64,000 nt of DNA from Chloroflexota bacterium (GCA_020349245.1 CP070764.1:2770723-2834722), one strand, 5' to 3'. Shown: positions 3,001-35,266, counted from the first letter of the stretch. The notes: generated from the sequence alone by a model not told the origin. Numbers and translations: made by a program.

Positions 3001-4276
3001 GATGATCAACTTAGACCAGGTTCGGCGAATAACGAATGCCAATATTGAAACCGTGCTGGTGCGTTCGCCATTGACCTGTGAATTGAACCACGGGATTTGT
3101 GCTAAATGCTATGGTATGGATTTGGGACGAGGGAAGCTGGTCGACGTTGGTGCTGCTGTAGGGATTGTTGCTGCGCAATCGATCGGTGAACCAGGAACCC
3201 AATTGACGTTGCGTACCTTCCATACCGGTGGTGTAGCTGCAGTCGGTGACATCACCACAGGTCTGCCACGTGTTGAAGAGCTTTTTGAAGCCCGGAAAAC
3301 CCCGAAAGGTGAAGCCGTGGTTACTGAAATTGCAGGCGCGGCATTTATTGAGCAATCTGATCGTTACAGTGATTTGCGAGTTGTTCGTGTTGAACAAAGC
3401 GACATGGTCAGCGAAGAATACACGCTTCCTGCTGGATATAGCATTGCAGTTGAGGATGGTAGCGAAGTCAAGGAAGGCGAGCTTTTGGCGAGTCTTGATG
3501 ATGCACAGATCGTTGCCGAAAACGCGGGTAAGGTTCGTATTGAGCAGGCAGAGGATCAGGAAAACGAAAAAGTTATCGTCTCCTATGAAGTCCGCCAGGA
3601 GGAGGAGTACGAGATCCCAAGCAATGCCCGTTTGTTAGTAAGAAACGGTGATCATGTAGAACCCGGACAGCCTCTGACAGAAGGTTCCCTTAATCCACAC
3701 TTAATTTTGCGTATTCAGGGACGTAAAGAATGCCAGAAATACTTGCTTTCCGAGGTTCAAAAAGTTTATCGGTCGCAGGGGCAAAATATTAACGATAAAC
3801 ATTTCGAGGTCATTATCCGCAAGATGATGTCCAAGGTTCAAATAACCCGTCCCGGAGATACAGAATTTCTACCTGGAGATCTCGTGGATTACCTTGAACT
3901 GAAACGAGAAAACGAGCGCTTGCTAGGCGAGGATTTACGACCAGCTCGATTTTTGGAGGTATTGTTGGGGATTACCAAAGCCTCCTTGAGCACCGAATCT
4001 TTCCTTTCAGCCTCCTCATTCCAGCACACGATAAAGGTGCTTGCCCAAGCAGCAATTTCAGCTTCTGAAGATAACCTGTATGGTTTGAAAGAGAACGTGA
4101 TCATCGGAAAATTAATACCTGCAGGAACAGGATTTGTCCCTGGTCGCTTCACTGAGGAAGAAATGGAAGAACTAATCCAAAGTGAACAAGAGGAAGAGTT
4201 CGAAGAATCAATTCTGGCTGAAGCTCTTTCAGATGACGGTCTTGGGGCACCTCCACCACCCGTTGCTGCAGATTAA
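2..4276 (+). CDS. rpoC: DNA-directed RNA polymerase subunit beta' (5' end truncated by window edge)
   Basis: The reading frame is open from nt 2 ([22 protein letters not shown]...). It has the zinc motif [14 protein letters not shown], the catalytic NADFDGDQM motif, and conserved C-terminal blocks. TAA stop at 4274-4276. Confidence 0.97.
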
Positions 4277-4473: not shown

Positions 4474-5067
4474 GTGCCGGAAGTGGATTTAGATAGCCTG
4501 ATTCTGGCTCAACAAGGAGATACACAGGCATTTACGGAATTGGTTGAGGCACATCAGGTGGCTGTATATAACCTTTGCCTGCGGATGTTGGGTGATCCTT
4601 ATGAAGCTGAAGATGCAGCACAAGAGACTTTTCTCAGAGCATATAAAGCCATGAAAACGTACGATAGTAAACGATCATTTTCCACATGGTTATTGTCGAT
4701 CGCTGCTCATTATTGTATTGACCAACTTCGTAGAAACCGGCTGAGTGTGACTCATTTTGAAGAAAATCCTTATTTAGATGTCCCGGATCCAAAACCAACG
4801 CCAGAAGGCTTGATTGCCGATAGTGAGCAACAAAAAAGAGTTCGTTCCTTATTAAACGTTCTTAGCGAGACTGACAGGGCAGCGATGATTATGTTTTATT
4901 GGTACGATTTTTCTTACGAGGAGATAGCCAGAGCCTTGAATTTATCGATCAGTGCTGTGAAGAGCCGTATGCACCGAGCGCGGTTGGAACTTGCGAAAAC
5001 CTGGAATGATCAGAAACAAACCATCACAGGTTTGGAAAGGCAATCATATGGATCACAAGCCTTTTGA
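4474..5067 (+). CDS. ECF-family RNA polymerase sigma-70 factor
   Basis: GTG start, 197 aa. Region 2 (DAAQETFLRAYK, WLLSIAAHYCIDQLRR) and region 4 (YEEIARALNLSISAVKSRMHRAR) motifs are present. Confidence 0.9.
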   Translation: MPEVDLDSLILAQQGDTQAFTELVEAHQVAVYNLCLRMLGDPYEAEDAAQETFLRAYKAMKTYDSKRSFSTWLLSIAAHYCIDQLRRNRLSVTHFEENPYLDVPDPKPTPEGLIADSEQQKRVRSLLNVLSETDRAAMIMFYWYDFSYEEIARALNLSISAVKSRMHRARLELAKTWNDQKQTITGLERQSYGSQAF

Positions 5068-5599
5068 ATCAATGCTGGTTTCGGAGGAGCCCCTCTCCCA
5101 AGTTGAGAAACAGCTGTTACAGGAGCATATTGAGTCATGTGCATCTTGCCGCCAGCTATCTATTTCTTGGGGAGAGGTGAATAATTTCTTCGAAATTCAA
5201 CCCTTAGCGAAGCCATTGGCAGGATTTACCAGCCGCTGGCAGGCAAGATTAATTGTGTTCAATGCACGGGAACTCGAGATAAGGGAAAAACGGGCTTCAT
5301 GGGTCTTCTTTGCTTCTACCGCGGCAGCAGCACTTGTTGTGTTCCTAATCATGGTCGTCCAATTCTTAAATTCTTTCCAAACTCCACTCCAAGTATTTAT
5401 CACCGGTGCAGCCATGTTTGCCGGATTGGTAAACCTCGCCAGTGCAGCGCAGGTTGCTTTTATCCCAATTGTCGAGTTGGTAGTTGTCAGGGTACCAAGT
5501 GTTTGGTGGTTTGCTATCGCTGGTTCAGCATGCATATTAATTTTAGCACTTACTTTTTCTGTAAGAAGAATTCTATATCCAAGGAGGGTATCCTTATGA
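5048..5599 (+). CDS. Zinc-binding (ZAS-type) membrane anti-sigma factor
   Basis: ATG at 5048 overlaps the sigma gene stop by 20 nt. It has the H-x3-C-x2-C motif (HIESCASC) near the N-terminus, followed by several hydrophobic helices. The longer track ORF from 4991 is probably an upstream extension. Confidence 0.75.
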   Translation: MDHKPFESMLVSEEPLSQVEKQLLQEHIESCASCRQLSISWGEVNNFFEIQPLAKPLAGFTSRWQARLIVFNARELEIREKRASWVFFASTAAAALVVFLIMVVQFLNSFQTPLQVFITGAAMFAGLVNLASAAQVAFIPIVELVVVRVPSVWWFAIAGSACILILALTFSVRRILYPRRVSL

Positions 5600-6693
5600 A
5601 AAAGCAATACAAGTTACTCGTTCTTCTGGTCGTCATGGTGATTCTATCTATCCCAGGCACTGCACTGGCGAAAGAATACCAAGATGACCGCGTGGTTGCC
5701 GGAGGTACGTTCTCACTAGAAAGCGGTGAAACGCTCGATGGCAGCTTGATCGTTTTCGGCGGTACGGTATCCATTGAACAAAATGCCACCGTTAGACGAG
5801 ATGTTGTTGTTCTTGGCGGCATAGCCACTATAGAGGGAGATGTGGGGGGGAATGTTGTCGGTGTTGGTGGTGTTATTAACCTCCGAGAAACTTCAACTGT
5901 CGGAGGTGACCTAACTACTGTTGCAGCAACCTTGAACCGCGATCCTGGCTCCCAGGTGAATGGCCAGGTCATCACAAGTGTGGATATTCCGGCGCTTTCT
6001 ATGCTGCCCAGCTCAATCGACATCCCCGCCATCACGAGATTTGAGCCAAGTTTCTATAATCCTGGCGAGTACACGGTATGGAGGGTATTCTGGTTTATCT
6101 TCCGTATATTATTGTGGGGTGCATTAGCTGCCTTGGTGGCTATGTTCTTGCCGAAGCAAACTACTCGGGTGTCTCAAACGATTGTCAAAGAACCTGTCCT
6201 GTCAGGTGGGCTAGGGTTGCTAACTATAATCATTGCACCGATCGTTTTATTGTTACTGGCGATCACGTGCATTCTTTCCCCGGTTAGCTTGCTAGGAATC
6301 TTAGTACTGGTAATCGCTTGGGCTTTTGGAAGAATAGCAATTGGTCTCGAAATTGGGCTGCGGATTGCTAAAGCATTCAACCGAGAGTGGCCTTTGCCTC
6401 TTGCGGCTGGTGTCGGTACATTCGGATTAGCACTCGTTGTCGACGGCCTCGGAACATTCATTTTCTGTGTTGGTTGGTTGATCCCAACAATTGTGGGAAT
6501 GTTCGGACTCGGTGGTGTTCTCCTCACACGCTTTGGTACACAATCACATCCCAAAGAAAGCCAGCTTGCTGAAACAGGTGAGGCAGATTTCCCAGCCGAG
6601 CTCATCGACAGCCCTGAACCCGCCTCCCTGGAGGATCAGGCATCAGACGCTGATCCAGCTGATGAGATTCCGGATCCGTCAGGAGAAAAATAA
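5596..6693 (+). CDS. Secreted beta-helix repeat (bactofilin/CcmA-like) domain fused to a polytopic membrane domain; hypothetical
   Basis: AAGGAGGG RBS upstream of ATG 5596. Signal peptide MKKQYKLLVLLVVMVILSIPGTALA. Gly/Val-rich repeats (GGTVSIEQNATVRRDVVVLGGIATIEGDVGGNVVGVGG). About 5 TM helices and an acidic tail. Track ORF 5299.. is an out-of-context extension. Confidence 0.7.
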   Translation: MKKQYKLLVLLVVMVILSIPGTALAKEYQDDRVVAGGTFSLESGETLDGSLIVFGGTVSIEQNATVRRDVVVLGGIATIEGDVGGNVVGVGGVINLRETSTVGGDLTTVAATLNRDPGSQVNGQVITSVDIPALSMLPSSIDIPAITRFEPSFYNPGEYTVWRVFWFIFRILLWGALAALVAMFLPKQTTRVSQTIVKEPVLSGGLGLLTIIIAPIVLLLLAITCILSPVSLLGILVLVIAWAFGRIAIGLEIGLRIAKAFNREWPLPLAAGVGTFGLALVVDGLGTFIFCVGWLIPTIVGMFGLGGVLLTRFGTQSHPKESQLAETGEADFPAELIDSPEPASLEDQASDADPADEIPDPSGEK

Positions 6694-7062: not shown

Positions 7063-7971
7063 TTAGTATTTAAAACCAAATAGATTAAGGGCTGCATCAT
7101 CATTTCGCCAATTCTTGCGCACTTTTACACGGAGCTGCAAATACACCTTGCGCCCCAGTAATTCTTCAATTTTCAAGCGTGCATCGATTCCAATCTTCTT
7201 CAGCCTTTCTCCACCCTGACCAATAACGATTCCCTTCTGGGAATCGCGTTCAACAAACAAGGTCGCAGCAATATAAGTTGTTCTTTCGTCTCTATCTTTA
7301 AATTCATCAATACGCACAGCAATGCTATGCGGAATTTCTGCGCGCAAATTAAACAATATTGATTCGCGAATGAGATCTGCAGCGATTTCTCGCTCATAAA
7401 GATCGGTTAACTGGTCTTCGGGGAAGAAAGGTGGTCCTTCTGGGAGTAATACGATCATTTGTTGAACCAATTGATCAAGATTCATTCCCAGGGTTGATGA
7501 AATTAAAAGTGTGTCTGCGTGAGGAAGTAATTCCTGGTACAAAAATGTGTGTTTCTTATTGATCTCCTCAGATTCGATATCAGCTTTATTCAAGGCCATC
7601 AGGATAGGAATAGATCTCTTGATGCCAGACAGCGCGTTGGCTAGCAAACGATCTTCTTCGTGTGGTGGTTGACTGATATCGACCAAGAATAAGATAATGT
7701 CACTTTCTTCCAGCACTTGGAGTGCTTCCTGGTTCATCCTTTCACCAAGTTTATGAATAGGATTGTGAAATCCCGGTGTATCAACAAAAACAATCTGCGC
7801 TTTCTCAAGGGTAAGAATGCCCATTTGGGCTTTGCGGGTTGTCTGCGGCCAGGGTGAAGTTGCCGCGATCTTTGTGCCTAATAGCTGATTAATTAATGTC
7901 GATTTGCCTACATTTGGGCGTCCCATGACCGCCACAAACCCGGACTTAAAATTTGAAGGATATTGGTCCAT
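7063..7971 (-). CDS. era: GTPase Era
   Basis: G1 GRPNVGKST, G3 DTPG, G4 NKAD, and a C-terminal KH domain (FVERDSQKGIVIGQGG). 302 aa. Confidence 0.95.
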   Translation of the reverse strand: MDQYPSNFKSGFVAVMGRPNVGKSTLINQLLGTKIAATSPWPQTTRKAQMGILTLEKAQIVFVDTPGFHNPIHKLGERMNQEALQVLEESDIILFLVDISQPPHEEDRLLANALSGIKRSIPILMALNKADIESEEINKKHTFLYQELLPHADTLLISSTLGMNLDQLVQQMIVLLPEGPPFFPEDQLTDLYEREIAADLIRESILFNLRAEIPHSIAVRIDEFKDRDERTTYIAATLFVERDSQKGIVIGQGGERLKKIGIDARLKIEELLGRKVYLQLRVKVRKNWRNDDAALNLFGFKY

Positions 7972-8071
7972 AGCACTATTCTATCATTGGGAAATGAATA
8001 AGAGTAACCCTTGATGATAAGAGTGGATTGGATGTCAACAGCTGGGCAAGAAAGCTGGTGATGGCTAGATG

Positions 8072-8092
8072 CAACGGGGAATTAACCAATAT
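8072..8092 (+). repeat. Right copy of an imperfect direct repeat flanking era
   Basis: caacggggaattaaccaatat matches 7000-7020 at 18/21 positions. Confidence 0.5.
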
Positions 8093-8190
8093 CATGCAGA
8101 TTTTCACCGGGAACAGTTAGAATTGCTCGAATAATTGCTGTGCAGAGTGAATTTTCATGTTAGTTTTCTGACTACATAAGCATAATTAGC

Positions 8191-8220
8191 TTGACTTTAA
8201 ATAAATATTTCTGCTATAAT
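8191..8220 (+). promoter_or_regulatory. Sigma-70-like promoter upstream of rpoB (TTGACT-18-TATAAT)
   Basis: ttgact at 8191-8196 and tataat at 8215-8220. A ~160-nt leader follows and contains a long hairpin (attgcgta 8294-8301 / tacgcaat 8331-8338). Confidence 0.5.
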
Positions 8221-8383
8221 TATCTCTTGTCTATTCGGTTAAACACACGTTAGCGAAGATATTGATCGAAAATTTATTATAAAGCAAATCAAGATTGCGT
8301 AGAACGCTTGGTGATTCAGCCATCGCGTTGTACGCAATACGCGTGTTAGTAACAAAAGAAGTTGGATTTATTAGGAGCAACTT

Positions 8384-11300
8384 ATGGCATCCTCTGTAGC
8401 AAGTAAATCTTATGCTCGCATAGATGTAACGATTCCACTCCCTGATCTGATTGAAGTACAGATTGAGTCATTCCAGAGGTTAAAATCGGAGGGTTTGGCG
8501 GATCTCTTCCACGAGATCTCACCCATTGAATCGTATAACAAGGGCATGAAGCTTTACTTTCCAAGCCGGACACCCGAGTCCGAAGAATGGGGACTCAAAT
8601 ACTGGTTTGATGAGCCGAAATATTCAATCGAAGATTGCGTTGAGCGTGATTTGACATACGCTTCGCCACTGTATGTGTCGGTCCTGCTCGCAGGACCGGA
8701 TGTCCCTGAACCAATTAAGCAGGACATATTCCTAGGCGACTTCCCAGAGATGACTGAAAAAGGCACTTTCATTATTAATGGTACTGAACGGGTTGTCGTT
8801 TCGCAGTTAATCAGGTCTCCTGGCGTTTACTTCGAAGCACCTATTGATCGCTCGACAGGACGCCCATTGGCTATTGCAAAGTTAATTCCAGATCGCGGCG
8901 CGTGGATGGAATTTGAAACGCGCAAGAGTGATTACCTGACTCTCCGATTTAACCGCAAGCGTATCGTGCCAGTGACCATTTTCTTACGAGCACTTGCAAC
9001 CGTGGATGATGGATTGCCTGATCCACCATTAAAGGAAGGTACCGACGAGGAGCTTCTCGAAATCTTCAGCGATGTCGATAACAATCCAGACCGGATGTTT
9101 ATCGCCTCCACACTTGCTCAAGAACCTGAGTGGGATCTGACTCAAGGACATTCGATCGCAGAAGAGGCACTCCTCGAGTTCTTCAGGCGGATGCGTCCGG
9201 GTGATCCTGCAACCTTGGATAACGCCCGTGAATTCCTTGAAGAGCAGCTTTTTGATCAGCGCCATTACGATTTGGAACGCGTGGGTCGTTATAAACTCAA
9301 CCAGAAACTGCAGCTTTACGAGCACGTGAATATTAACCACCGCATGATCACCAAGTGGGATCTTATTTTCCTGGTGCGGCGGATGATTGCAATTAATAAT
9401 GGCATCCAGTCAGCGGATGACATTGACCATCTAGGTAATCGCCGCGCAAAAACCGTGGGAGAACTGATACAGAACAAGCTGCGGATCGGTATGCGCCGTA
9501 TGGAGCGGGTAATCAAGGAACGTATGTCAATCCGTGATCAAGATCAGCTTTCACCAATCACGCTGATAAATATCCGTCCGGTTGTTGCTGCCCTGCGGGA
9601 ATTTTTCGGTTCGAGCCAGTTATCCCAATTCATGGATCAAACGAACCCGCTTGCCGAATTACGACACAAGCGAACCTTATCAGCCCTAGGTCCAGGCGGT
9701 CTGCGGCGAGAACGGGCTGGTTTCGATGTGCGGGATGTCCATCATTCCCACTATGGTCGAATTTGCCCGATCGAGACACCGGAAGGACCAAATATCGGTC
9801 TAATCGGTCGCTTAGCCTCATTTGCCCGAGTAAACCAATACGGGTTTATCGAGACTCCATACCGAAAAGTTTTGAAATCTTTGCCAGCCAGGGATGATCG
9901 GCTGGTTGACAGGGTTCTACGAGAAGACCTCGAACACGAGAAAACCGGAAAAGCGATAGGCAAAGCCGGGGAGCGTATCACAAAGCAGATGGCTCGATCG
10001 ATTCCCTCCTCCGGAAAGGAAGAAATTCTTATAGTTCCCTTCGTTTCCGATGAACGCGAGTATTTGTCTGCAGATGAGGAGGATAAATTTGTCATCGCCC
10101 AGGCAAACACTCCTTTAACAGATAATAATGAATTTGTCCGGGGTCGCGTTTCAGGGCGATTGCATTCAGGATTCGATTTCTTTGCCCCTGAAAATATCGA
10201 TTATATGGATGTGGCTCCCAACCAAACAGTTGGGATCAGTGCTGGCTTGATACCTTTCCTGGAACATGACGATGCCAACCGTGCCTTGATGGGATCGAAT
10301 ATGCAAGCACAGGCAGTTCCCCTGGTAAAACCAGATATTCCCCAAGTTTCAACCGGTATGGAATTCCATGCTGCCAGAGATTCTGGGCAGGTGATTGTCG
10401 CTGAGGAAGATGGCGAAGTCGTATCTGTGACTGGCAAGCATGTGCTGGTCAGGAACGGTGATGGCGATCACCTATATCAATTACGGAAATATCAACGATC
10501 AAATCAGAGCACCTGTATCGATCAGCGTCCCGCGGTGGTAAAAGGTCAACGGATCCATCGGGGGGATGTAATCGCAGATTCTTCTTCTACAGATGCTGGA
10601 GAGCTGGCTCTTGGTCAAAATGTAACCGTGGCATTTCTTTCATGGGAGGGGGCAAATTTCGAAGATGCCATCGTTATCTCCGAACGGCTTGTCCAGGATG
10701 ATTTATATACCTCTGTGCACATCGAAAAATACGAAGTTGAATCACGGGACACCAGGTTAGGTCCTGAGGAGATCACCCGCGATATTCCAAATGTCGGAGA
10801 AGATGCGATTAAAGATTTGGACGAACAGGGAATTATTCGCATCGGAGCAGAAGTTGGTCCGAATGATATCCTGGTGGGAAAAATTTCCCCGAAGGGTGAA
10901 AGGGAACTGTCTCCAGAAGAAAGATTACTCCGGGCAATTTTTGGGGAGAAATCACGCGATGTTAAAGATACCTCATTGCGGATGCCGCATGGTGAACGAG
11001 GAAAAGTTGTCGATGTGAAAGTATTCACCAGAGAGGACAATTCGGACCTATCCGCGGGTGTGGATATGATGGTCCGCGTGTCTGTTGCACAGCGGAGAAA
11101 AATTACCGCTGGTGATAAGATGGCTGGCCGTCATGGCAATAAAGGGGTTGTCTCCCGCGTCGTTCCTGCAGAGGATATGCCATTCCTGGAGGATGGAACA
11201 CCGATCGATATCATTCTCAACCCAACAGGTATCCCGGGGCGAATGAACCTGGGACAGGTTCTTGAAACTCATCTAGGCTGGGCAGCCAGCCGACTCGGAT

Positions 11301-12289
11301 TCAGGGCAATTTCACCCGTATTCGACGGTGCCAAGGAATCGGAGATCGAAGCTGAACTTGCTCGAGCATGGATGATTGAAGAAGCTTGGAAAGAAGCCGG
11401 GGAAAAAGCCTGGGAGTGGTTAAATGGGTTTGAATACGATCCAGAATCGATCAAAGATGATGTTGAAGTCCGCAACTTGTACCTCGAAGCCTGGCTAGGT
11501 GAACGAGATTACGATGTTTACAAGATCGTTTCAGATTATCAATATTCACGGCGAGCTGTATTGAAAGAATGGTTAAAGGATCAAGGATTCGATCCTGAAA
11601 AAATCTTAGATTTTGAGGACATGGAAATACCGGAAAGTGAAGGTCCTGCCCAGGATGAGAGAGCTTTATATGCCTGCTTACGACTCTGGATGCTCGATTT
11701 GGGATACAAAGTGGATAGAACTCCAGAAAACAAGTTGTGGGAACGCGCTAAGAAGGTGATGATGGAAACCAGCCTGCCAATTCCAGTTTTAGGAAAGCAG
11801 AAGGTGCGAGATGGCAAAACAGGTATGCCTTATGATCAACCGGTGACAGTCGGGATCATGTCCATCATGAAGCTTCACCACCTTGTGGAAGACAAGGTAC
11901 ATGCTCGCTCAACAGGCCCATACAGCTTGGTTTCTCAACAACCTTTAGGTGGTAAAGCGCAGTTTGGTGGTCAACGATTCGGTGAGATGGAAGTATGGGC
12001 GCTCGAAGCCTATGGTGCTGCTTATACTCTGCAAGAAATGCTTACTGTGAAATCGGATGATGTCCAGGGTCGCGTGAAGACGTATGAAGCGATTGTAAAA
12101 GGCGAACCGATCGAAGAGCCGAGTATCCCAGCATCTTTTCGAGTCTTGGTTAAGGAGTTGCAGAGCTTGGGGCTGGCTGTTGAAGCGGTGAATGAAACTG
12201 GTGAGATCATTCGCTTTGGAAAGGATGAGGAGCGTTCTCGTCCGCCAAGAGTAAGTACAGGATTGCTTGGCCTTGGAGAGGATTTCTGA
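8384..12289 (+). CDS. rpoB: DNA-directed RNA polymerase subunit beta
   Basis: 1301 aa. Motifs: [66 protein letters not shown]. Confidence 0.98.
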
Positions 12290-26150: not shown

Positions 26151-26873
26151 TCAGTGCCAAGGATTTTCCATCGTTTGAATCAATACCGGCGTCCCGATCT
26201 TTATATTTACCCTGCGGGTAACCAGCCACAAGACCAATTCTGCGATATCTTCCGGGTAGAGACATTTGCTGTGATCCAATCCAGACGATTCCTTAGTCAT
26301 CTCAGTAACAACCATACCCGGACAGATTGTATCTACCCGAATCCCAAAGTCTTGGTTCTCACGCTGAATGAACTCCCCCAGGGCATTGAGGGCGTGCTTT
26401 GCGACACCATAAGCACCATTCCCCTGGTAATATTCAAGCCCAGATTCCGAGCTGATGTTAATGATATGTCCCTGTTTTCTTTCCCGCATCATCGGCAAGA
26501 CTGCCCTTGCAGTTAAGAACGGTCCTCGCAGATTCGTAGCCAGCACCTGATCCCAGGTCTGGACATCGTGATCGTGGATATAACCCCCGCCATCAATCCC
26601 TGCGTTGTTGATTAAAATATCCACCTGCCCAAAAGTGTTTTGTGTGGTCTCTAGCAAGCGAGCGACATCCTCTTCCAAAGAGACATCCCCGGCTACCGCT
26701 AAGCATTCACCACCCCGGGCAGAAATTTCCTGCAGCGTCCTGTCCAATGGCACTCTTCGCCTCCCATTCAAGACGACTTTGCAGCCTTGTTGCGAGAGTC
26801 TCAAGGCGATACCCTGCCCAATACCTGTACCTCCACCAGTGATAATCGCTACTTTTCCAATCAAATCCAGCAT
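26151..26873 (-). CDS. Short-chain dehydrogenase/reductase (SDR)
   Basis: TGGGTGIG cofactor motif, NNAG, and catalytic YGVAKHAL (YxxxK). ATG at 26873 is preceded by GAGGTG. The track start 26885 is a TTG overlapping the upstream stop. Confidence 0.9.
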   Translation of the reverse strand: MLDLIGKVAIITGGGTGIGQGIALRLSQQGCKVVLNGRRRVPLDRTLQEISARGGECLAVAGDVSLEEDVARLLETTQNTFGQVDILINNAGIDGGGYIHDHDVQTWDQVLATNLRGPFLTARAVLPMMRERKQGHIINISSESGLEYYQGNGAYGVAKHALNALGEFIQRENQDFGIRVDTICPGMVVTEMTKESSGLDHSKCLYPEDIAELVLWLVTRRVNIKIGTPVLIQTMENPWH

Positions 26874-26881
26874 CAAGCACC

Positions 26882-27853
26882 TCAAACTTTCATGGATAAA
26901 CCTGCGACAGCGTTGATATCGTGCACTTCGGGGAGAATTTTCTGCCAGTGAATCGAATCGAGAGGCGATGAAAATAATTCTCCGTTTGATAATACTGCCA
27001 GCAGCTGCGCCCCAACCTGGGTAAAACGCTCCACCATGTGGTTGCGCCAGGGCAGATCAAGTCCCCTGGACGCGTCTTGCCAGGTAACGCCCCCATCCCA
27101 AGTCATTTCGATACGCCCATTTCGATCAACCCAATCTGCAGAGCCCACCAGCATATGGCCAGGATCCTTTGGATCCCACCATGCTGCCCGGCAATAACAA
27201 TCCGGGTAGCAGTTAACCCAAGTTTCACCGGCATCTGCGGAGATAAACAGGCCTCCACCAGTTGTTGCAGCAACCAGATCACCTGAACTGGGATGGGTGA
27301 TTATCGCGTGCACATCCGGGTGAATATTCTCATCCGCGGAAGGGCTTTTCCTGCCAAGATTCCAGGTTACTCCCCGATCCCTGGAGACTAATATCCCACC
27401 AACTTCTACTGCTGCATAGGCAACCAGTCCGCTGAAAGCAAAGCTGCGAACACACCCCGCTTCCGGTGAATAGGGCAGGTACCAACCCAGCTGCTGCCTC
27501 ATCTCAGCTACCTCTGAACAGAATTTCCAGGAGATGCCGCCATCCCGGGACAGGAAAATTCCGGCTGGTTCCGTACCTGCACATACCTTTCGAGGCTGAT
27601 CGGGATCGGCGGCGATCCAACGAATCTGGCGTATGGACAAACCCTGGTTGACTGCCCGCCAAGAAATACCCGCGTCATCTGAGCGAAAGATGCCCACTCG
27701 CGTGGCTGCTAACCAAATATCTCCATTAATCACGATACTGGTCACAGAAGCTCCTTGTAGCTCACGCTGGATAACCTGCCAACCAGCAGCTTCCTTGGCA
27801 CAAATCGCAATTCCATGGGAAGTGGCTAAACACAGTACCTTGCGATCGTTCAT
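26882..27853 (-). CDS. BNR/Asp-box repeat beta-propeller protein (Ycf48/sialidase-like fold)
   Basis: Five SxDxGxxW-type repeats (SDDAGISW, SRDGGISW, SRDRGVTW, SADAGETW, TWDGGVTW). The start ATG overlaps the HerA stop by 1 nt (TAATG). Confidence 0.8.
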   Translation of the reverse strand: MNDRKVLCLATSHGIAICAKEAAGWQVIQRELQGASVTSIVINGDIWLAATRVGIFRSDDAGISWRAVNQGLSIRQIRWIAADPDQPRKVCAGTEPAGIFLSRDGGISWKFCSEVAEMRQQLGWYLPYSPEAGCVRSFAFSGLVAYAAVEVGGILVSRDRGVTWNLGRKSPSADENIHPDVHAIITHPSSGDLVAATTGGGLFISADAGETWVNCYPDCYCRAAWWDPKDPGHMLVGSADWVDRNGRIEMTWDGGVTWQDASRGLDLPWRNHMVERFTQVGAQLLAVLSNGELFSSPLDSIHWQKILPEVHDINAVAGLSMKV

Positions 27854-29550
27854 TAAAAACCCAGTTCTTCCAAGATCTCAGCTTCACCCCTTTTCCCCCT
27901 TCCAGAACCCAACAAATCTTCCCAGAAATTCTGGTCATAGCGGCGGGAGGAAACCGGCAGCGGCATGGGGACGCCCCAACCAAGGAGGAGAACTTCCTCC
28001 TTGGGCTGGAGACGGGCCAACATACCACGCAGCGCTTCCCGCCCAGCCAGACCAGATAGCACCGCCCGAATATCATCATCATCACCCAGCCAACCAGAGA
28101 TACGGGTGCCGAGCTGCGACAGAACCTCATCATAGATTTGCGATGGTCGCTGGTCCACGATCAGCAGAGTGACGTAATATTTACGCATTTCCCTGGCGAT
28201 GGTGCTGAACGTAGTCTGCACGGCCATTTCCCGGTTGAGCAGCTTGTGGGCTTCCTCCAGCACGATCACCAGCGGTCGCGGTTCCCTATCCCCCTTTGCG
28301 CGGTACTCGTTTGTCCGTTTTTCCCATACCTGGCGGATGCGCCTGGTGAGGAGATTTGTCACCAGCAGGTAGTCCAAGTCTTTATCATGGTCACCAAACG
28401 AGAGCACGATATGCTGACCTGCATCCAGCGCTTTAATTATTTCACTCACCGTATCACTCGCTGGTTGATCAACAATGTAGGTTCTGCGGAAGAGTGGTCC
28501 CATTTTTGAATGCAGGCCTTTGGCTGCTTCAGGATGCACCCCTGCTTCCAAAGCCCAGGCTTCCACGCTATCCGGCGCGGCTATCTTTTTTCCATCTTGA
28601 TCTTCTATCACCGCTCCAGGCTTTAACCCCATGAATCTTTTATACCAGTGATCCTTGCCAAATGTCGCCACCAAAGCGTCCAATGTCGTCGGCGTGGTTT
28701 CTCGAAGGTTGAGCTCCCGGGTGAGCAGCTCGATATCTTCAGGCTGGATATCCTGCATAGCGATTTCAAGATTGAAATCCGGCGCCTGGCCGCGAATTTG
28801 AGCACCTTGCCCCAGGCCAACCACTCTCACCCGGCTGTGAAATTTCGACTTCAATCCAATGACCCGTTCGCCGGTGTCTGAGGCAGTATCATCGAAACCG
28901 TACTCATTATGCATATCAAAAACCAAGATGGATGAGCGATTGTAGTGGATCAAGCCTGCCAGCACCAGGCGGGTCAGGAAAGACTTGCCTGTACCAGTAG
29001 CCCCAAAAACGCCTGATGAACGCTGAACGAACTTCTCCAAGTTGAGACAAACTGGGTGGGCCTGTTCCCGGGTGTAGCCGATGACGAAGTTTCCTTCCTT
29101 TTCAGCTTCGCCAAATATCTCGGCAATATCTCCAGGGGTGGCCATTCGAACACCCGCATGGTGCGGGGGGATGGTCTTCACCGGTAAAGGCCTCGGTCGT
29201 GGGCGGGTGCCAGATTCGATTTCAGCCAGCCAGGTCTGGTACTCCGGGGTCTCCAGGCTTGGGCCACGCTCCAGCATCAGCGCCGGGAGGACCTCTAGAT
29301 TGGTGAATAAGGTCTGCCCGTGAAGCAGGTTAGCCAGCTCCCCGGGCAGTCGCGCCTCGCTTTGTTCATCAGCAAACCTTGGATCGGTCGCCCCAAGGAG
29401 CAAATCTGTCACCAGGCCATAAAACAGCCAATTCCCACTTTCAATGACCGCAAAGGCACCTTCTTGTATTTGGTGCGAAGGCACCGTGAGGCGAACGCTG
29501 AGGTTTTCCTTAAGACCACCCCCAACCACATAGCCAATATACTCGGTCAT
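27853..29550 (-). CDS. HerA-like (DUF87/FtsK-HerA superfamily) ATPase with N-terminal HAS-barrel
   Basis: Walker A GATGTGKSF, Walker B/DEAH-like VIVLEEAH, and the C-terminal block LLIVDQRPSQI. ATG at 29550 forms an ATGA overlap with the upstream stop. The alternative start is 29568. Confidence 0.85.
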   Translation of the reverse strand: MTEYIGYVVGGGLKENLSVRLTVPSHQIQEGAFAVIESGNWLFYGLVTDLLLGATDPRFADEQSEARLPGELANLLHGQTLFTNLEVLPALMLERGPSLETPEYQTWLAEIESGTRPRPRPLPVKTIPPHHAGVRMATPGDIAEIFGEAEKEGNFVIGYTREQAHPVCLNLEKFVQRSSGVFGATGTGKSFLTRLVLAGLIHYNRSSILVFDMHNEYGFDDTASDTGERVIGLKSKFHSRVRVVGLGQGAQIRGQAPDFNLEIAMQDIQPEDIELLTRELNLRETTPTTLDALVATFGKDHWYKRFMGLKPGAVIEDQDGKKIAAPDSVEAWALEAGVHPEAAKGLHSKMGPLFRRTYIVDQPASDTVSEIIKALDAGQHIVLSFGDHDKDLDYLLVTNLLTRRIRQVWEKRTNEYRAKGDREPRPLVIVLEEAHKLLNREMAVQTTFSTIAREMRKYYVTLLIVDQRPSQIYDEVLSQLGTRISGWLGDDDDIRAVLSGLAGREALRGMLARLQPKEEVLLLGWGVPMPLPVSSRRYDQNFWEDLLGSGRGKRGEAEILEELGF

Positions 29551-30173
29551 GATCGAATTTCCTCCCATGCTTCTGGGACTGCATCAGCCAGGGTGCTGAT
29601 CACCCGCATCAAGGTTGCATAATCATCCCGCAGCAGGATAATCAATTCCCGGGTCGCCTGCCGCGCCCAACTCTGATTTCCTGTCCGTTTCTGAGCCTCC
29701 TGCACTTGCTTCAGATGAGCCGCCAGCAGGTCGCTCACCGGTAACTCGCTACGGCTCAAGATGTGACGAAAATATCCGAATCGTCCAGTAGAGGTAAATC
29801 TCTGCACTTCTCCTTCTTCACATAAATAGATCGCGTCGAGACTCAGTGCAGGTCTGGGTGGGAGCAGGTGGGATATTTGTCCCTCCTCAAGGTAGCCCAC
29901 TGAGAGGACACTCATTTCGATGGGCACGTTCCGGTTAACCCGGTTGTCTGCGATGACTGCGTCATCGATTCTTTCCGTCGTCACCAGCTGGCGGATCAAC
30001 CCATCATCATCAATATGGATATCATAGATGAGACCATAAATCTGGTAGCTATCTTCCACCGGCACCCGGACGAGGGCACCGAAAGATGGTGCGCTAATCT
30101 GGGAAACCCGGCAACCAACCACGAAACCGGTTGTGCCTGCTCGCAATAATCGTCCAATTTCAATTGTCCTCAT
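29547..30173 (-). CDS. Standalone HAS-barrel-like protein (paralogous to the HerA N-terminus) with a helical C-terminal half; hypothetical
   Basis: By eye, the N-terminal ~100 aa align to the HerA N-terminus (IGRLL..FGALVRV...QIYGLIYDI vs IGYVV..GAFAVIE...LFYGLVTDL; MSVLSVGYLEEG vs LEVLPALMLERG). There are ATGA overlaps at both ends. Confidence 0.55.
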   Translation of the reverse strand: MRTIEIGRLLRAGTTGFVVGCRVSQISAPSFGALVRVPVEDSYQIYGLIYDIHIDDDGLIRQLVTTERIDDAVIADNRVNRNVPIEMSVLSVGYLEEGQISHLLPPRPALSLDAIYLCEEGEVQRFTSTGRFGYFRHILSRSELPVSDLLAAHLKQVQEAQKRTGNQSWARQATRELIILLRDDYATLMRVISTLADAVPEAWEEIRS

Positions 30174-31360
30174 AATGAAAATCTCGTCCTCCCAGGCACC
30201 TGCTTCGCATATTGCTTGGATGAGATCTCTCCAACATTCAAACCACGCTGGCGCAATTCCTGCGTGATCATCTGAGTCACCTGGGTCTTCTCCTCTAACC
30301 TGACTACGGCAGTTTCATGGGCCCGGTGCAGCAGGTAAGGGTAAGGACGCCCTCCCATCAAGCGGCATTGATCGATTAGTATCGCGTGCAAGGCATGTAT
30401 ATAATCTTCGTTTTCTGCCACCCAAGCGGGTATCTCGACACGCACCAGGTAAGGACGTCCGGTTTGCCCAACATTGAGATAAAAGAAATGCAGCCTCAGC
30501 GCTCCTCGATAGCTCTTTAACATTTGGGACTGCATGGCAAAAATCGGGGATCGTTCTCCAGCCTGGAGGATTTGCCGGTACAGCGCGATATCTGTCACAC
30601 CCCAAAGAGGATGTGAATCAGCAATTTCCGAGAGCTTCGCGTCTGGAACCATACTCACTTCTAAAGTGCGCACTACCAGATTTGCAGCGGGTTTATCGAT
30701 ATAACCTGCGGTTATCACGTTCAGGTCATATAACTGGTTTAATACTTCCAGATACTGTTTAAGACGTTCCTGAAAATCAGCCCGTACAGCGCTCTCTCCA
30801 CTCTTTGCACCCCACAATTCCATCGGTCCATCTGTGAAGGTCACGACTGGTGGAGCAGCGGTTTTCGCCAACTTTACTAGGATCTCTCGCTCCTTGATAT
30901 CCCGCAACAGGGCGACCTGGGCTTCAGTTAAAGTACCAGCAGCTGAATACAGCTGTTCGTCATAAAGCAATTCACTGGAGATTGATGTTTCCGGCGGATC
31001 GGCAGAACCAAACTTCATCTGGATCGCCCCGGTGTTTATCAGTGCAAAGTTGACCTCGGCATGGCGATCAGGCGTGATTTGTGAACCATCTGCTGCGATT
31101 AAGGTGGCTACCTCTGGAAGATTGGGAAGTGGAGAAGCAAGGGTTAAGGGTTCAGCAACCGGTAAAGCACAGCGTAAAGAAGGATCATAGCTGCGGACAA
31201 CCATCTCGACCTTTTGGCGCAGATCACTCAAGTTTTGAGCGTTTTCCACCAATATTTCAAGTGCTTGCTCGCGTTTGTTTTGCAGCTCTCCCGCCTGCTC
31301 GAGCGCGTTCTCACCCAGCAGCATCACCTGTTGGCGAATTGATTGAAAATCCAGGCTCAT
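30170..31360 (-). CDS. NurA-domain nuclease
   Basis: NurA signature blocks: IAADGSQ, FTDGPMEL, and C-terminal GRPYPYLLHRAHETAVV. The N-terminal ~80 aa are coiled-coil. It lies adjacent to HerA. Confidence 0.7.
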   Translation of the reverse strand: MSLDFQSIRQQVMLLGENALEQAGELQNKREQALEILVENAQNLSDLRQKVEMVVRSYDPSLRCALPVAEPLTLASPLPNLPEVATLIAADGSQITPDRHAEVNFALINTGAIQMKFGSADPPETSISSELLYDEQLYSAAGTLTEAQVALLRDIKEREILVKLAKTAAPPVVTFTDGPMELWGAKSGESAVRADFQERLKQYLEVLNQLYDLNVITAGYIDKPAANLVVRTLEVSMVPDAKLSEIADSHPLWGVTDIALYRQILQAGERSPIFAMQSQMLKSYRGALRLHFFYLNVGQTGRPYLVRVEIPAWVAENEDYIHALHAILIDQCRLMGGRPYPYLLHRAHETAVVRLEEKTQVTQMITQELRQRGLNVGEISSKQYAKQVPGRTRFSL

Positions 31361-31507: not shown

Positions 31508-34500
31508 TTACTGTGCTTCTTCGATCAGATATAGCTGTCCTGTATCGGTAACTAGGTATAAACGGCCAGCTGCTAATCCACCCCCCAGGATCTCCCCCTG
31601 CTCATTTTCAAGGGTGATTTCCCAAATTGGCTTCTCTTCGCTTGGAGATAACGCAAAACATGCTATATCCGCCACATACCTGTTCGATTGACCGGACTGG
31701 CAGGCATAAACCGTGTAATCACGATCTACTGCTGGCACATCCCTTATCCACCATTTCGACAGCTGATTTGCACCCAAAGCCTGCCCGTTCGGAGCAAACC
31801 ACAGTACATCTCGGAAATAAGTCATCCAAACCACACCCTGCTCTGTGACCCCGATATGCTCCATACGTCCAAACTGGGAGATAACCCGCGCCTCCTCTAA
31901 TTCAGCTTTCCCGGCAACATAATGCCAGGCTCTGATAGTCCCTCCTGCAATCAAATAGTTCTTACCATCCTGACCAGAGATAAACTTGTCAACCTCGAAA
32001 TCGAAATCCATTTCCTGATCCAGGCGAACACCATCTTTCGCCCTGTATATCTCGTCGGCAAAAAATATCAGATCACCAGAACTACTCACCTGAAGAGAAG
32101 TGTAATATGAACGGGTTTCTACCCTTACCAACCACTCTGCGAGTCCCTGTGCAGAGACGGACTGGATGCTGGCTCTACCGGGCGTCCCGACAACATACAA
32201 AATAGAGCCTATCGGGTTGACCACCGGACCCGATATGGTTTTCATGCCGGGTTCGGATTGGAAATGCCAATATAATTCCCCGTCTGTTGAATATGCGGAC
32301 AAACCTCCCTCAACATCGGCGATATAAATTTCTCCCTGCTTGCCTACAGCTGGGTTACCAACCGCTTCAGTGGGTAAACTGACCTGCCATTTGATCTCAC
32401 CATCAGAGTTCAAGGCATAAAGGATACCTATCTTGGAAGCCAAGTAGAGCGTACCGTCCTGGCCAATTTCCAAACTACCGGAGAATCCATCTTCATCTGC
32501 GAATATCCGGTGGGCAGTTGGCGATCTTGGTCCCAAAGGTTCACCAGCCTTTTTGAGGACGGCTTCCTTTCCGGGCAGCATTTCCAGCCCTAAGGTCTCC
32601 CCACCCGAGCTGTCGCTTGGGTCTTTCTCACCAGGATCGCTTATTGCGTAAAGGAAACCTTCTTGCGTGGCGATGTACAACCTTCCAGGGACAAGACTCC
32701 CCCCTACTACCTCGCGACTCTCTTCCAGGAGCAATTTCCATATGGGTTCTTCGTATTCCGGAGAGAATGCCTGGCACTCTGGCAGACCATAGCCGTAATC
32801 CAGGTTTCCGCATAAGAAAATACGAGCTTGCTGATCGACAGCGATCACCTTGGTATTTCTTGTCTGATAATGAACATTCCCAAATACATTACCTGCTTTA
32901 TCCAACCAGATGAGCCGGGTATCAGTTCCGTAACCCCAACCGCGAGCAAATCCAGTATACAGCAGCCAAATTTTCTCATCCGGTGTCACTCCTACAGCGG
33001 CACTGGTACTTGAAATAACATACTTTTCATGATCCCAGGTAACGCTGTCTAGAATTTCAGCAGAGGGGGATTTGTCATCCCAACGGATGATCTCATGAGA
33101 AGCGACCAAGTAGCTGTTTCCATCTGCACCGGAGAAATAATTATCCGTTTTCGGATGGTCCTGTAAATACAATGTTTCCCCGTTAGCCGCATCCAGAACA
33201 ATTCCCCCTCGAAAGATCATCCTTGCGTCCGCAGATAACTGAAGCACCTCTATCGGTGACACACTTCCTGGCGGCTGCACCCGCCACAACCCGCTGCCCT
33301 CGTGAGAAACGGCTTGTATCTTCAATCCCTGCGCGTAATAAAGGACACCCGCTGGACTCACAATTGGACCAGTTGTGGCAATCAGACCGCTTTCCACAGT
33401 AAAATGCCATTCGACTTCCCCTTGAGGTGAGATGGCTGAAAGCCCACCCAAGCCATCTGAGACGTAAATCGTCCCCTCCGGACTGAGGCCAGGCGTACCC
33501 ACAGGTTTTGCGGGAAGGTCAATCTGCCAGGTTACATTCCCTTTCTGTTCGAGAGCATACAGGACACCTGCGTTTGAGGCGATATACAGCCCGCCATCAG
33601 CAGCCACAACTGGGCCACCGGAAAAACCCGAAGGATCTTTGAAGGTCCAGGCTATTTGGGCATTTCTTGGGCCCACTACCTGACTCCACTGGGTACCAAA
33701 TGGATCGTGCTGGGAGGAAACCCAATAATGCTCTTGGGGAAACGCCGATTGCAGATTATTCTCATCAAATGTAAACCCGCTCTGCAAACGCCAAAGGATC
33801 AAAATGACGGTAAGCAGGACAAGCACCAGGCTAGCGGAAAACGCTCTGTTACGTGGTCGCTTGAAAAATTCTCCTAGCGGCCAACCAAGATTCTGGTCTA
33901 TCCAAAATCGAAATCTTGAGCTCCAGCCAGTGATCAGGATTGGCCGAATCCCCTGCTGGCTGGATTGTTGCCGCAGTCCTTCTCCCAGCAAGTTGAATCC
34001 TAAGACCATGCAAAAAACACAAGCGCCGATTACGATCAGCGGCCAAGGTCTGAGAAGGCTTGCCTCCGTGGTCGCCAGCATTTGTCCCAATTCAGGCATC
34101 CCGCTGACAGCTGCTGCGGTCGCATCAGTGACTTGCACCCAAATATCCCCCCCGATATAGTAGCCAAGGAAACCCAGTGCAGCCACCACTAATAGCGTGC
34201 TGCTGATCTCGAACGCAAATAACATCCAGAGCAATGAAGTGACCTGGCGAAGAACATGCCAACGCAGGATCTGAGAGTTAGTACCGCCAAGGCTGCGGGC
34301 GGCCTCAATAAACGCCTGTCCGCGAACAACTTGAGTCTGCTCGCGAACCACACGCGCAGTTTCAACCCAACCAGTCAGCGACAGCGCAAAGACAAATGCC
34401 CATATTCCCAGATCTACCCCCACTGCCGCAATTCCCCCCAAGGCAACAATAATGACGGGAATTGAGATAGCTGCAGCAATGATACCGTCAAACATGCGTC

Positions 34501-35266
34501 CCGGCCATGCAGTTGACCAACCAGCGATCAAACCAATGAATGTGCCCAAAGCAAGACGCACGCCTGCCACGATGATCACCAGGATCATCGTTGGCCGGAT
34601 CCCCCATAATATGCGGCTAAGAAGGTCCCGCCCTTCTCCATCCGAGCCAAGCGGATACCCAGGAGTGAACATGGGATACGGGGCGGCAAAGTATTTATCA
34701 CCAGCCTTGATGATTACACTTTGTTCAAGCGGATCTCTCGGTGCCAGAAAAGGTCCGCTGATCGCAAACAAGGCGACCAGGATGACCAGCAATCCCCCGA
34801 CGATTATTGACCAATTTCGGGGCCCCTTTTGAGATAAAGTGTCGGGGCGATCTAAACGGGGTAAAGTTAGTGTTCCTTTACCCCGCTTAGCCACTTCACC
34901 TCTCTCATCGCCAGGAATAGTTGCAGCTGAAGCTGACCCATCATCCAGAGAAGGAAATTCTTTCGTTGAAGATTTAATTAATGGACTCTCTTTGGTTTTG
35001 AGGCGCTTCAATGCCTTCATCGCAGATTGATTATCAGGGTCAAGCAGAATCACTCTTTCAAGACAATCGATCGTTTGTTCTTTGCGATCAACCGCCTGCG
35101 CAAGCAGCAACCAGGCTTCCTCGCTGTGCGAATCTTGTAGAAGGACCTCCTTCAAATAGCGGCGTGCCTGTACTCTTTCACCCCTTTCAATTGCTTCCTG
35201 TGCTTTTTCGATAAGCGGTAAAATCACTGCTTTACCCACGCAATCGAGGATCAAATACTCGCACAA
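31508..35266 (-). CDS. Fusion protein: TPR repeats + OppC/DppC-type ABC permease + extra TM + duplicated PQQ/BamB-like beta-propeller (1252 aa)
   Basis: The N-terminus is TPR-like (EAWLLLAQAV...). An OppC_N-like segment (FLAPRDPLEQ) is followed by six TM helices with the EAA-type loop (IEAARSLGGTNSQILRWHVLR). Then comes an additional TM, followed by two ~350-aa modules with repeats such as DGGLYIASNAGVLYAL and DGTLYLASKIGILYAL. The start may instead be GTG at 35227. Confidence 0.8.
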   Translation of the reverse strand: MCEYLILDCVGKAVILPLIEKAQEAIERGERVQARRYLKEVLLQDSHSEEAWLLLAQAVDRKEQTIDCLERVILLDPDNQSAMKALKRLKTKESPLIKSSTKEFPSLDDGSASAATIPGDERGEVAKRGKGTLTLPRLDRPDTLSQKGPRNWSIIVGGLLVILVALFAISGPFLAPRDPLEQSVIIKAGDKYFAAPYPMFTPGYPLGSDGEGRDLLSRILWGIRPTMILVIIVAGVRLALGTFIGLIAGWSTAWPGRMFDGIIAAAISIPVIIVALGGIAAVGVDLGIWAFVFALSLTGWVETARVVREQTQVVRGQAFIEAARSLGGTNSQILRWHVLRQVTSLLWMLFAFEISSTLLVVAALGFLGYYIGGDIWVQVTDATAAAVSGMPELGQMLATTEASLLRPWPLIVIGACVFCMVLGFNLLGEGLRQQSSQQGIRPILITGWSSRFRFWIDQNLGWPLGEFFKRPRNRAFSASLVLVLLTVILILWRLQSGFTFDENNLQSAFPQEHYWVSSQHDPFGTQWSQVVGPRNAQIAWTFKDPSGFSGGPVVAADGGLYIASNAGVLYALEQKGNVTWQIDLPAKPVGTPGLSPEGTIYVSDGLGGLSAISPQGEVEWHFTVESGLIATTGPIVSPAGVLYYAQGLKIQAVSHEGSGLWRVQPPGSVSPIEVLQLSADARMIFRGGIVLDAANGETLYLQDHPKTDNYFSGADGNSYLVASHEIIRWDDKSPSAEILDSVTWDHEKYVISSTSAAVGVTPDEKIWLLYTGFARGWGYGTDTRLIWLDKAGNVFGNVHYQTRNTKVIAVDQQARIFLCGNLDYGYGLPECQAFSPEYEEPIWKLLLEESREVVGGSLVPGRLYIATQEGFLYAISDPGEKDPSDSSGGETLGLEMLPGKEAVLKKAGEPLGPRSPTAHRIFADEDGFSGSLEIGQDGTLYLASKIGILYALNSDGEIKWQVSLPTEAVGNPAVGKQGEIYIADVEGGLSAYSTDGELYWHFQSEPGMKTISGPVVNPIGSILYVVGTPGRASIQSVSAQGLAEWLVRVETRSYYTSLQVSSSGDLIFFADEIYRAKDGVRLDQEMDFDFEVDKFISGQDGKNYLIAGGTIRAWHYVAGKAELEEARVISQFGRMEHIGVTEQGVVWMTYFRDVLWFAPNGQALGANQLSKWWIRDVPAVDRDYTVYACQSGQSNRYVADIACFALSPSEEKPIWEITLENEQGEILGGGLAAGRLYLVTDTGQLYLIEEAQ

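Follow-up and report, generated by a model that had tools for sequence, protein, structure and literature searches.

A conserved NurA-P208-HerA gene triad of Anaerolineae with a predicted HAS-barrel protein encoded between nuclease and motor

Introduction

DNA end resection in archaea and bacteria is driven by hexamers of HerA, and so are several recently solved anti-phage systems; in every solved case known to us, it is the HAS-barrel crown of HerA itself that receives the partner enzyme. The present study deals with an operon that appears to extend this arrangement by a third component. It lies in a stretch of 64,000 nucleotides (nt) from a Chloroflexota genome (GCA_020349245.1 CP070764.1:2770723-2834722), hereafter termed the window, within which all coordinates are counted unless another locus is named. 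In this operon, the gene of an unannotated protein of 208 amino acids (aa), here called P208, is placed between the genes of a NurA-family nuclease and a HerA-type hexameric ATPase/translocase.

In Deinococcus radiodurans, cryogenic electron microscopy (cryo-EM) revealed that NurA is bound by an acidic patch of the HerA HAS-barrel, comprising D78/E80/D81, via basic motifs of NurA (PMC9960219). It is the same HAS-barrel face of their cognate HerA proteins on which SIR2 and DUF4297 effectors dock (PMC11472057, PMC11291478). With respect to gene organization, DR0837/DR0836 of Deinococcus and nurA-hepA of Thermus constitute two-gene operons, in which nurA's stop codon and the start of herA overlap (PMC9960219, PMC5448004), while the archaeal HerA-NurA end-resection complex is encoded by a herA-mre11-rad50-nurA operon (PMC3326311, PMC3300031, PMC12977600).

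The NurA-P208-HerA Operon

According to ORF calls on the window, NurA, P208 and HerA are encoded in this order by three consecutive, co-directional open reading frames (ORFs) of the minus strand. The first one (30170..31360, 396 aa) belongs to Pfam family PF09376, the second one (29547..30173) encodes P208 with its predicted HAS-barrel-like barrel and helical domain, and the third one (27853..29550, 565 aa) shows DUF87, HerA_C and weak HAS-barrel matches. Both junctions consist of a 4-nt ATGA stop/start overlap: the one between NurA and P208 (30170..30173) reads tcattATGAgg, while the one between P208 and HerA (29547..29550) reads cgatcATGAcc, with a Shine-Dalgarno-like GGGAGG located 5' of the HerA ATG at position 29550. 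The latter overlap presupposes that HerA begins at MTEYIG. If translation began further upstream, at the ATG at 29568, the product would comprise 571 aa, but since homologues start at MTEYIG, the start giving 565 aa is preferred. An earlier note on the window, prepared from its sequence alone, had described these three ORFs and their two overlaps, and both are borne out by the ORF calls and the junction sequences; all peptide blocks quoted there (IAADGSQ, FTDGPMEL, GRPYPYLLHRAHETAVV, QIYGLIYDI, LFYGLVTDL, GATGTGKSF and VLEEAH) were found as well.

The locus resembles its Deinococcus and Thermus counterparts in that nurA precedes herA, codons overlap, and the genes are chromosomal and reside among metabolic genes. 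Moreover, HerA comprises HAS-barrel, RecA-like and helix-bundle parts in either case, and it is the HAS-barrel face on which NurA docks in those organisms. Unlike there, where no third gene has been described, a conserved 208-aa gene is present between nurA and herA. With the archaeal complex the locus shares both enzyme families, presumably also a HerA hexamer that pushes DNA into a NurA dimer, and, as judged by motif and spacing, apparently the Asp/Glu/Asp/His set of NurA. On the other hand, linkage to Mre11/Rad50 is absent from the window, SbcD follows HerA in only one of 88 loci, an extra predicted HAS-barrel subunit is encoded, and the lineage is bacterial and largely mesophilic. The SIR2-HerA (Nezha) and DUF4297-HerA systems, finally, likewise employ the HAS-barrel face of a HerA hexamer as a docking platform for the effector (PMC11472057, PMC11514289, PMC11291478), and it is their HerA chains that the P208 barrel matches best in structure. 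They differ from the triad, whose effector is NurA, which includes a third, HAS-like protein and whose distribution resembles that of core genes.

On balance, we lean towards regarding the triad as a version of the bacterial NurA-HerA machine for DNA end processing that has three subunits, is encoded on the chromosome, is inherited vertically and characterises the Chloroflexota class Anaerolineae in the broad sense. NurA and HerA are ordinary members of their families; the apparent novelty lies in the third subunit, which is conserved, and in its being a docking domain derived from HerA. Searches of Pfam, NCBIfam and PADLOC gave no match to P208, every annotation source labels it 'hypothetical protein', and full-text literature searches returned no description of the middle gene or of a free-standing HAS-barrel partner. 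The three-part version thus seems to be undescribed, in agreement with the statement of the earlier note that no HerA-NurA module with a separately encoded HAS-barrel was known.

That a separate HAS-barrel protein has been retained alongside NurA and HerA in a class as large and abundant as this one hints at a so far unrecognised level at which HerA motors may be assembled or controlled. It also provides a testable role for a large family of hypothetical proteins, and bears on DNA end resection in Anaerolineae, which to our knowledge has not been studied previously. In addition, the system is amenable to study in cultured organisms, e.g., Thermoflexus hugenholtzii. While relevant to structural biologists concerned with HerA and end resection, it does not overturn current understanding and is of moderate interest.

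Sequence Family and Predicted Fold of P208

The P208 family comprises 5726 clusters at 90% identity and 543 representatives at 50%. Many positions are invariant in the family, including DDDG in the first and positions in the other four of the conserved motifs, namely DDDG-x-xRQL (residues 55-63), DNRxNRN (76-82), LLPPRPxLSLD (103-113), GYFRH (133-137; GYxRH in the family) and LLRDDY (180-185). An AlphaFold2 model based on an alignment of 36 sequences (predicted local distance difference test, pLDDT, 81; predicted template modelling score, pTM, 0.82) divides the protein into a beta-barrel of residues ~1-117, which is acidic with a pI of 4.8, and a helical domain of residues ~118-208. In a Foldseek comparison of this model with the PDB, all of the top 50 matches were HerA chains (probability 1.00), with E-values of 5.2e-5 to 6e-3 over 125-161 aligned columns and a root mean square deviation of 2.5-2.7 Å over ~130 columns for the best ones. 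These chains stem from DUF4297-HerA, SIR2-HerA, S. solfataricus HerA, the T. kodakarensis HerA-NurA complex and TdpA. The C-terminal helical domain modelled alone (pLDDT 71), by contrast, retrieved only designed or TPR-like helical repeats with a best E-value of 3. Hence, the fold signal originates from the barrel, and the helical domain has no recognisable relative. A search of the viral BFVD folds with P208 yielded nothing at E <= 0.001.

Comparisons at the sequence level point in the same direction once profiles are used. In hhalign, a profile-profile alignment, P208 28-55 is in register with HerA 27-53, which covers the segment whose likeness to the HerA HAS-barrel had originally been noticed. 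Moreover, the Pfam HAS-barrel family (PF09378) matches 11 of 29 P208 family members (best E-value 6.9e-5; all below the gathering threshold) in a co-linear manner, family residues ~7-74 corresponding to profile positions 1-59, and is the sole Pfam family that recurs among them. A search of PDB sequences with the P208 profile gave no HerA match. Although pairwise BLASTP is not significant, profile alignment, family matches and modelled fold agree on a HAS-barrel-like N-terminus, as the earlier note had supposed. As far as the model can be relied on, P208 is a HAS-barrel protein that stands alone, has diverged strongly and carries a helical domain in addition. Since HerA retains a barrel of its own, P208 would represent an additional HAS-barrel protein instead of the detached part of a split HerA.

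It could be objected that P208 is an unrelated small beta-barrel, for instance a DNA-binding or regulatory protein, which merely resides in the operon and whose likeness to the HAS-barrel is convergent or generic. The missing significant sequence match of P208 to HerA or to the Pfam HAS-barrel would be in keeping with such an origin, as would Foldseek TM-scores of only ~0.4 when normalised to the whole query. Nevertheless, no other barrel family is found among the 50 best fold matches, the only recurrent Pfam match of the family is the co-linear HAS-barrel, and adjacency to NurA and HerA is kept across lineages in which P208 identity has dropped to ~30%, so that we regard this explanation as very improbable.

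Two further resemblances of P208 were considered and discarded. A remnant of the RecA domain in the C-terminal part was suggested by an alignment of P208 144-193 with HerA 401-449, close to Walker B (E-value 0.055), which is unsupported by profiles. Similarly, the P208 family profile weakly matched family-1 uracil-DNA glycosylases (UDGs) over residues ~98-179 (29637-29882, minus strand) with a best E-value of 0.015. This similarity centres on a Pro-rich loop (LPPRPPLSL versus PPSL...GYL), and because P208 is predicted to be helical where UDG has a strand, the match is treated as probably due to chance.

Conservation of the Triad and Coupling of P208 to NurA

In a pattern scan that took a single genome for each GTDB species, at least 397 species genomes were seen to encode P208. 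The best 80 of these loci all belong to Anaerolineales or unclassified Chloroflexota. NurA is encoded directly upstream of P208 in 78 of them, and HerA downstream in all but 9, several of which are on contigs that stop just past P208. More distant family members occur in Caldilineae, Thermoflexus hugenholtzii and Pelolinea, and the triad is intact in the complete genome of T. hugenholtzii, in Caldilineae and in metagenomic branches at 28-35% P208 identity. While HerA conservation amounts to 65-83% identity in related loci, orthologues of a divergent branch share 39% (HerA, end to end) and 28% (NurA). A profile search with the divergent P208 subfamily returned 7 metagenomic proteins only. The expectation that a triad of NurA, an intervening gene and HerA would recur in relatives therefore holds from the 80 Anaerolineales loci to Thermoflexus, Caldilineae and deep metagenomic branches.

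The two junctions are conserved to different extents. The genes of NurA and P208 most often overlap by 4 nt (35 of 77 loci) and are seldom more than 30 nt apart. The spacer between P208 and HerA, on the other hand, can measure anything between -4 and over 4000 nt, which renders this junction far less conserved. NurA-P208 is thus the tightest link within the triad. A mirror-tree comparison of distance matrices from 45 loci agrees with this, though as weak evidence: the partial correlation is 0.46 for P208-NurA given HerA versus 0.14 for P208-HerA given NurA.

This tight coupling could also be accounted for if P208 acted as a decoy or safety catch, i.e., as a negative regulator or chaperone of NurA that occupies its HerA-binding face and keeps the nuclease inactive or soluble until HerA loaded on a DNA end displaces P208, in which case P208 would not be a stable third subunit. 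The HAS-like fold of P208 is that of the HerA domain on which NurA docks (PMC9960219), genetic coupling is tightest with NurA, and HerA can be located kilobases away or outside the locus while NurA and P208 remain paired. None of these observations separates a decoy from a stable adaptor. However, with its conserved C-terminal helical domain and many invariant surface motifs, P208 would seem to interact through more than a single surface, for which a simple decoy would have no use, and a decoy function appears rather unlikely to us.

In other Anaerolineales, the stretch between P208 and HerA is a hot spot of insertion. It harbors PDDEXK_3 (GxxExxY-type) genes in 5 loci (L005, L007, L019, L023, L036), CpdA-like metallophosphoesterase genes in 4 loci (L021, L042, L050, L070), and Eco57I-like and N6_N4 DNA methylases, a DinB-family protein and 23S-rRNA-intervening-sequence proteins (23S-rRNA-IVP) in L014, L045, L044 and L061. 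Since these inserts vary between genomes, they are not considered components of the system, and a fourth component among the heterogeneous PDDEXK_3, CpdA-like, DNA methylase, DinB and 23S-rRNA-IVP genes was rejected.

The NurA and HerA Components

The Pfam NurA domain (PF09376) matches residues 86-353 of the nuclease with an E-value of 7.6e-21 (75.2 bits versus a cut-off of 21) and covers profile positions 2-254 of 254. It is preceded by an N-terminal helical extension of ~85 aa, which is kept in relatives but mostly absent from the alignment with the divergent NurA of locus L087, which begins at residue 51. Among 25 NurA relatives, D91, E157, D177 and E349 do not vary, and the conservation of H348 is at least 90%. 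The catalytic set of P. furiosus NurA (PfNurA) consists of D51/E105/D126/H411 (PMC3300031), and the putative counterparts D91, E157, D177 and H348/E349 follow a like order, the distance from E157 to D177 being 20 residues as compared to 21 in PfNurA. As no solved NurA was matched by sequence or profile searches of PDB sequences, this assignment is based on motifs and spacing instead of an alignment to a solved NurA. The putative catalytic residues, the loss of which had been named as an argument against the module, are thus invariant or nearly so in the relatives and resemble those of PfNurA in motif and spacing. In the L087 homologue, His is replaced by Asp, an exchange that occurs in other NurA/Ago proteins.

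HerA matches DUF87 with an E-value of 1.3e-25 and HerA_C with 3e-6 in Pfam, and its translation contains Walker A (GATGTGKSF) and Walker B (VLEEAH). Nine HerA sequences of the PDB were matched, including that of S. solfataricus, starting from residue 3, and the solved HerA nearest by sequence is the one of a SIR2-HerA system. The HerA of D. radiodurans, being only remotely similar, does not appear among PDB sequence matches at E <= 0.001. The HAS-barrel of HerA itself is discernible as a weak Pfam match at residues 11-69 (E-value 0.16) and by residues 5-69 being in register with residues 3-62 of S. solfataricus HerA, which at 2.5 bits is not significant alone. Furthermore, weak precomputed Pfam HAS-barrel matches exist for the HerA orthologues of Thermoflexus and Caldilineae, and the N-terminus aligns end to end with a divergent orthologue. 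All NCBIfam HerA equivalogs score far under their cut-offs (~80 bits versus 800), which, at the sequence level, assigns the window HerA to a distinct HerA clade.

TdpA, deposited as part of a 'TdpAB complex' solved by cryo-EM (8wet, 8wfd), is HerA-like and occurs among both the sequence matches of HerA and the fold matches of P208. Its sequence similarity to the window HerA is weak (E-value 3.3e-7). Unlike the triad, TdpAB was deposited as two proteins, and the entry descriptions contain no separate HAS-barrel subunit. We take TdpB to be NurA-like and TdpAB to be a defence module.

Proposed Mechanism

In the three-subunit machine that we favour, HerA would act as the usual ATP-driven hexameric DNA translocase, and NurA as an RNase-H-fold nuclease that degrades the DNA fed by HerA. 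P208 may have arisen as an ancient copy of the N-terminal HAS barrel of HerA, which diverged highly and became fused to a novel helical domain. It would be made together with NurA and bind it through the acidic HAS-like barrel, as the HAS domain of HerA does. In this way it could be an adaptor or a regulatory subunit, by which the coupling of NurA to the HerA ring is either brought about or gated. From the acidic barrel, the invariant DDDG loop and the tight coupling to nurA, we infer that P208 binds NurA and is probably a NurA-binding adaptor or regulator. As a more tentative extension, P208 might form a HAS-type crown or partial ring of its own, stacked between the hexamer of HerA and the dimer of NurA, giving rise to a three-tier machine. 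If so, the docking of NurA by the N-terminal domain of HerA would have been delegated to a separate, independently evolving subunit, and P208 would be the first free-standing HAS-barrel ring protein, representing a new way to regulate or re-target a HerA motor.

Several observations weigh against this three-subunit reading. Pairwise BLASTP of P208 against HerA is not significant, P208 itself stays under every Pfam threshold, and the HAS-barrel scores of its family (13-16.5 bits) fall short of the gathering threshold of 25.2. The best family-level matches of HerA include anti-phage HerA models, and in a few genomes no HerA gene occurs within 6 kb of NurA-P208. The mirror-tree partial correlations derive from non-independent pairs without a neutral control. 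An apparent NurA-P208 fusion ORF of 592 aa in a long-read metagenome-assembled genome (MAG; L023, 4822-6600) was rejected as the artefact of a 1-nt indel, as the shifted frame restores the usual NurA C-terminus together with the ATGA overlap, and a Rosetta-stone argument is therefore not available; P0146, P0153 and P0222, which are chimeric representatives in the database, seem to be artefacts of a like kind. Finally, linkage of SbcD is confined to the single locus mentioned above and no other recombination gene is linked. The data establish the gene order with its overlaps, the domain identities, the intact motifs, the modelled HAS-like fold, the conservation of the triad and its tighter NurA-P208 linkage. 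The binding of P208 to NurA or HerA, its partner, its stoichiometry and a role in end resection or repair are proposals, as are the stoichiometric co-translation and the capping or bridging roles suggested by the earlier note.

Genomic Context: Repair or Defence

The neighbours of the operon within the window are housekeeping genes, including rpoC, rpoB, fusA, those of PEPCK and PFK, ABC permeases and two-component systems. Neither a SIR2 nor a DUF4297 effector gene adjoins herA, whose neighbours are P208, NurA and a BNR propeller gene, and tblastn detected no SbcD-like gene within the window.

A function in defence against phages or plasmids has to be considered, in analogy to SIR2-HerA and DUF4297-HerA, with NurA as the effector nuclease and P208 as a sensor or adaptor. 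HerA is the only protein of the triad with PADLOC hits, and its top model is an anti-phage one (PDLC04105, E-value 2.2e-31), the match to NCBIfam HerA_antiphage being comparable. This as well as the SIR2-HerA origin of the closest solved HerA would suit a defence system, to which may be added the restriction-modification methylases and PD-(D/E)XK genes inside the operon of other genomes, one divergent triad near a Tn7-like element and another one beside a DNA methylase. NurA and P208, however, have no PADLOC hit, and the inserted genes vary by genome and hence are not components. Moreover, neither the 72,556 plasmid records nor the 50,697 phage records contain a tblastn match to P208, and an occurrence in 397 or more species, all of one class, together with 65-83% HerA identity and housekeeping neighbours, is typical of a vertically inherited core system and not of a patchy island. 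We therefore judge a defence function distinctly unlikely. The earlier note had left it between a repair and a defence variant: the housekeeping or repair side of this proposal is favoured, while the defence side has become less likely in view of the core-gene distribution, the high conservation and the PADLOC results for NurA and P208.

Individual loci add to this picture of the surroundings. In the Caldilineae MAG L084, an SbcD/Mre11-family nuclease gene (7234-8496) is located 10 nt 3' of HerA and matches TIGR00619 above cut-off (E-value 1.6e-36), with no SbcC adjoining it; this order recalls the archaeal herA-mre11 linkage and, as a single case, counts in favour of the end-processing reading. 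In L087 (1-4324), ~2.6 kb separate a divergent NurA-P199-HerA triad from a Tn7-like tnsA/tnsB/tniB/tniQ set; judging from gene orientation, the triad seemingly lies outside the element on its tnsA side. The second divergent triad mentioned above directly adjoins its DNA methylase gene.

Neighbouring Genes in the Window

Downstream of HerA, a BNR/Asp-box propeller gene (26882..27853, minus strand) overlaps the HerA stop codon by 1 nt (TAATG) and matches an F510_1955-like glycosylhydrolase below cut-off. It is followed by an SDR gene (26151-26885, minus strand) with a 4-nt overlap. As synteny of both genes with the triad is confined to the closest relatives, they were rejected as parts of the module. 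A scan for promoters and terminators produced counts at chance level.

At the start of the window, rpoC (beta', 92-4276, plus strand) lies upstream of rpoB (beta, 8384-12289, plus strand), which is the reverse of the usual rpoB-rpoC order, and the gap of ~4 kb between them contains three ORFs (4991-5599 and 5299-6693 on the plus strand, 7063-7971 on the minus strand). Directly upstream of the operon, an ORF of 1252 aa (31508-35266, minus strand) combines an ABC permease (BPD_transp_1) with two PQQ/BamB-like beta-propeller blocks and thus displays an unusual architecture.

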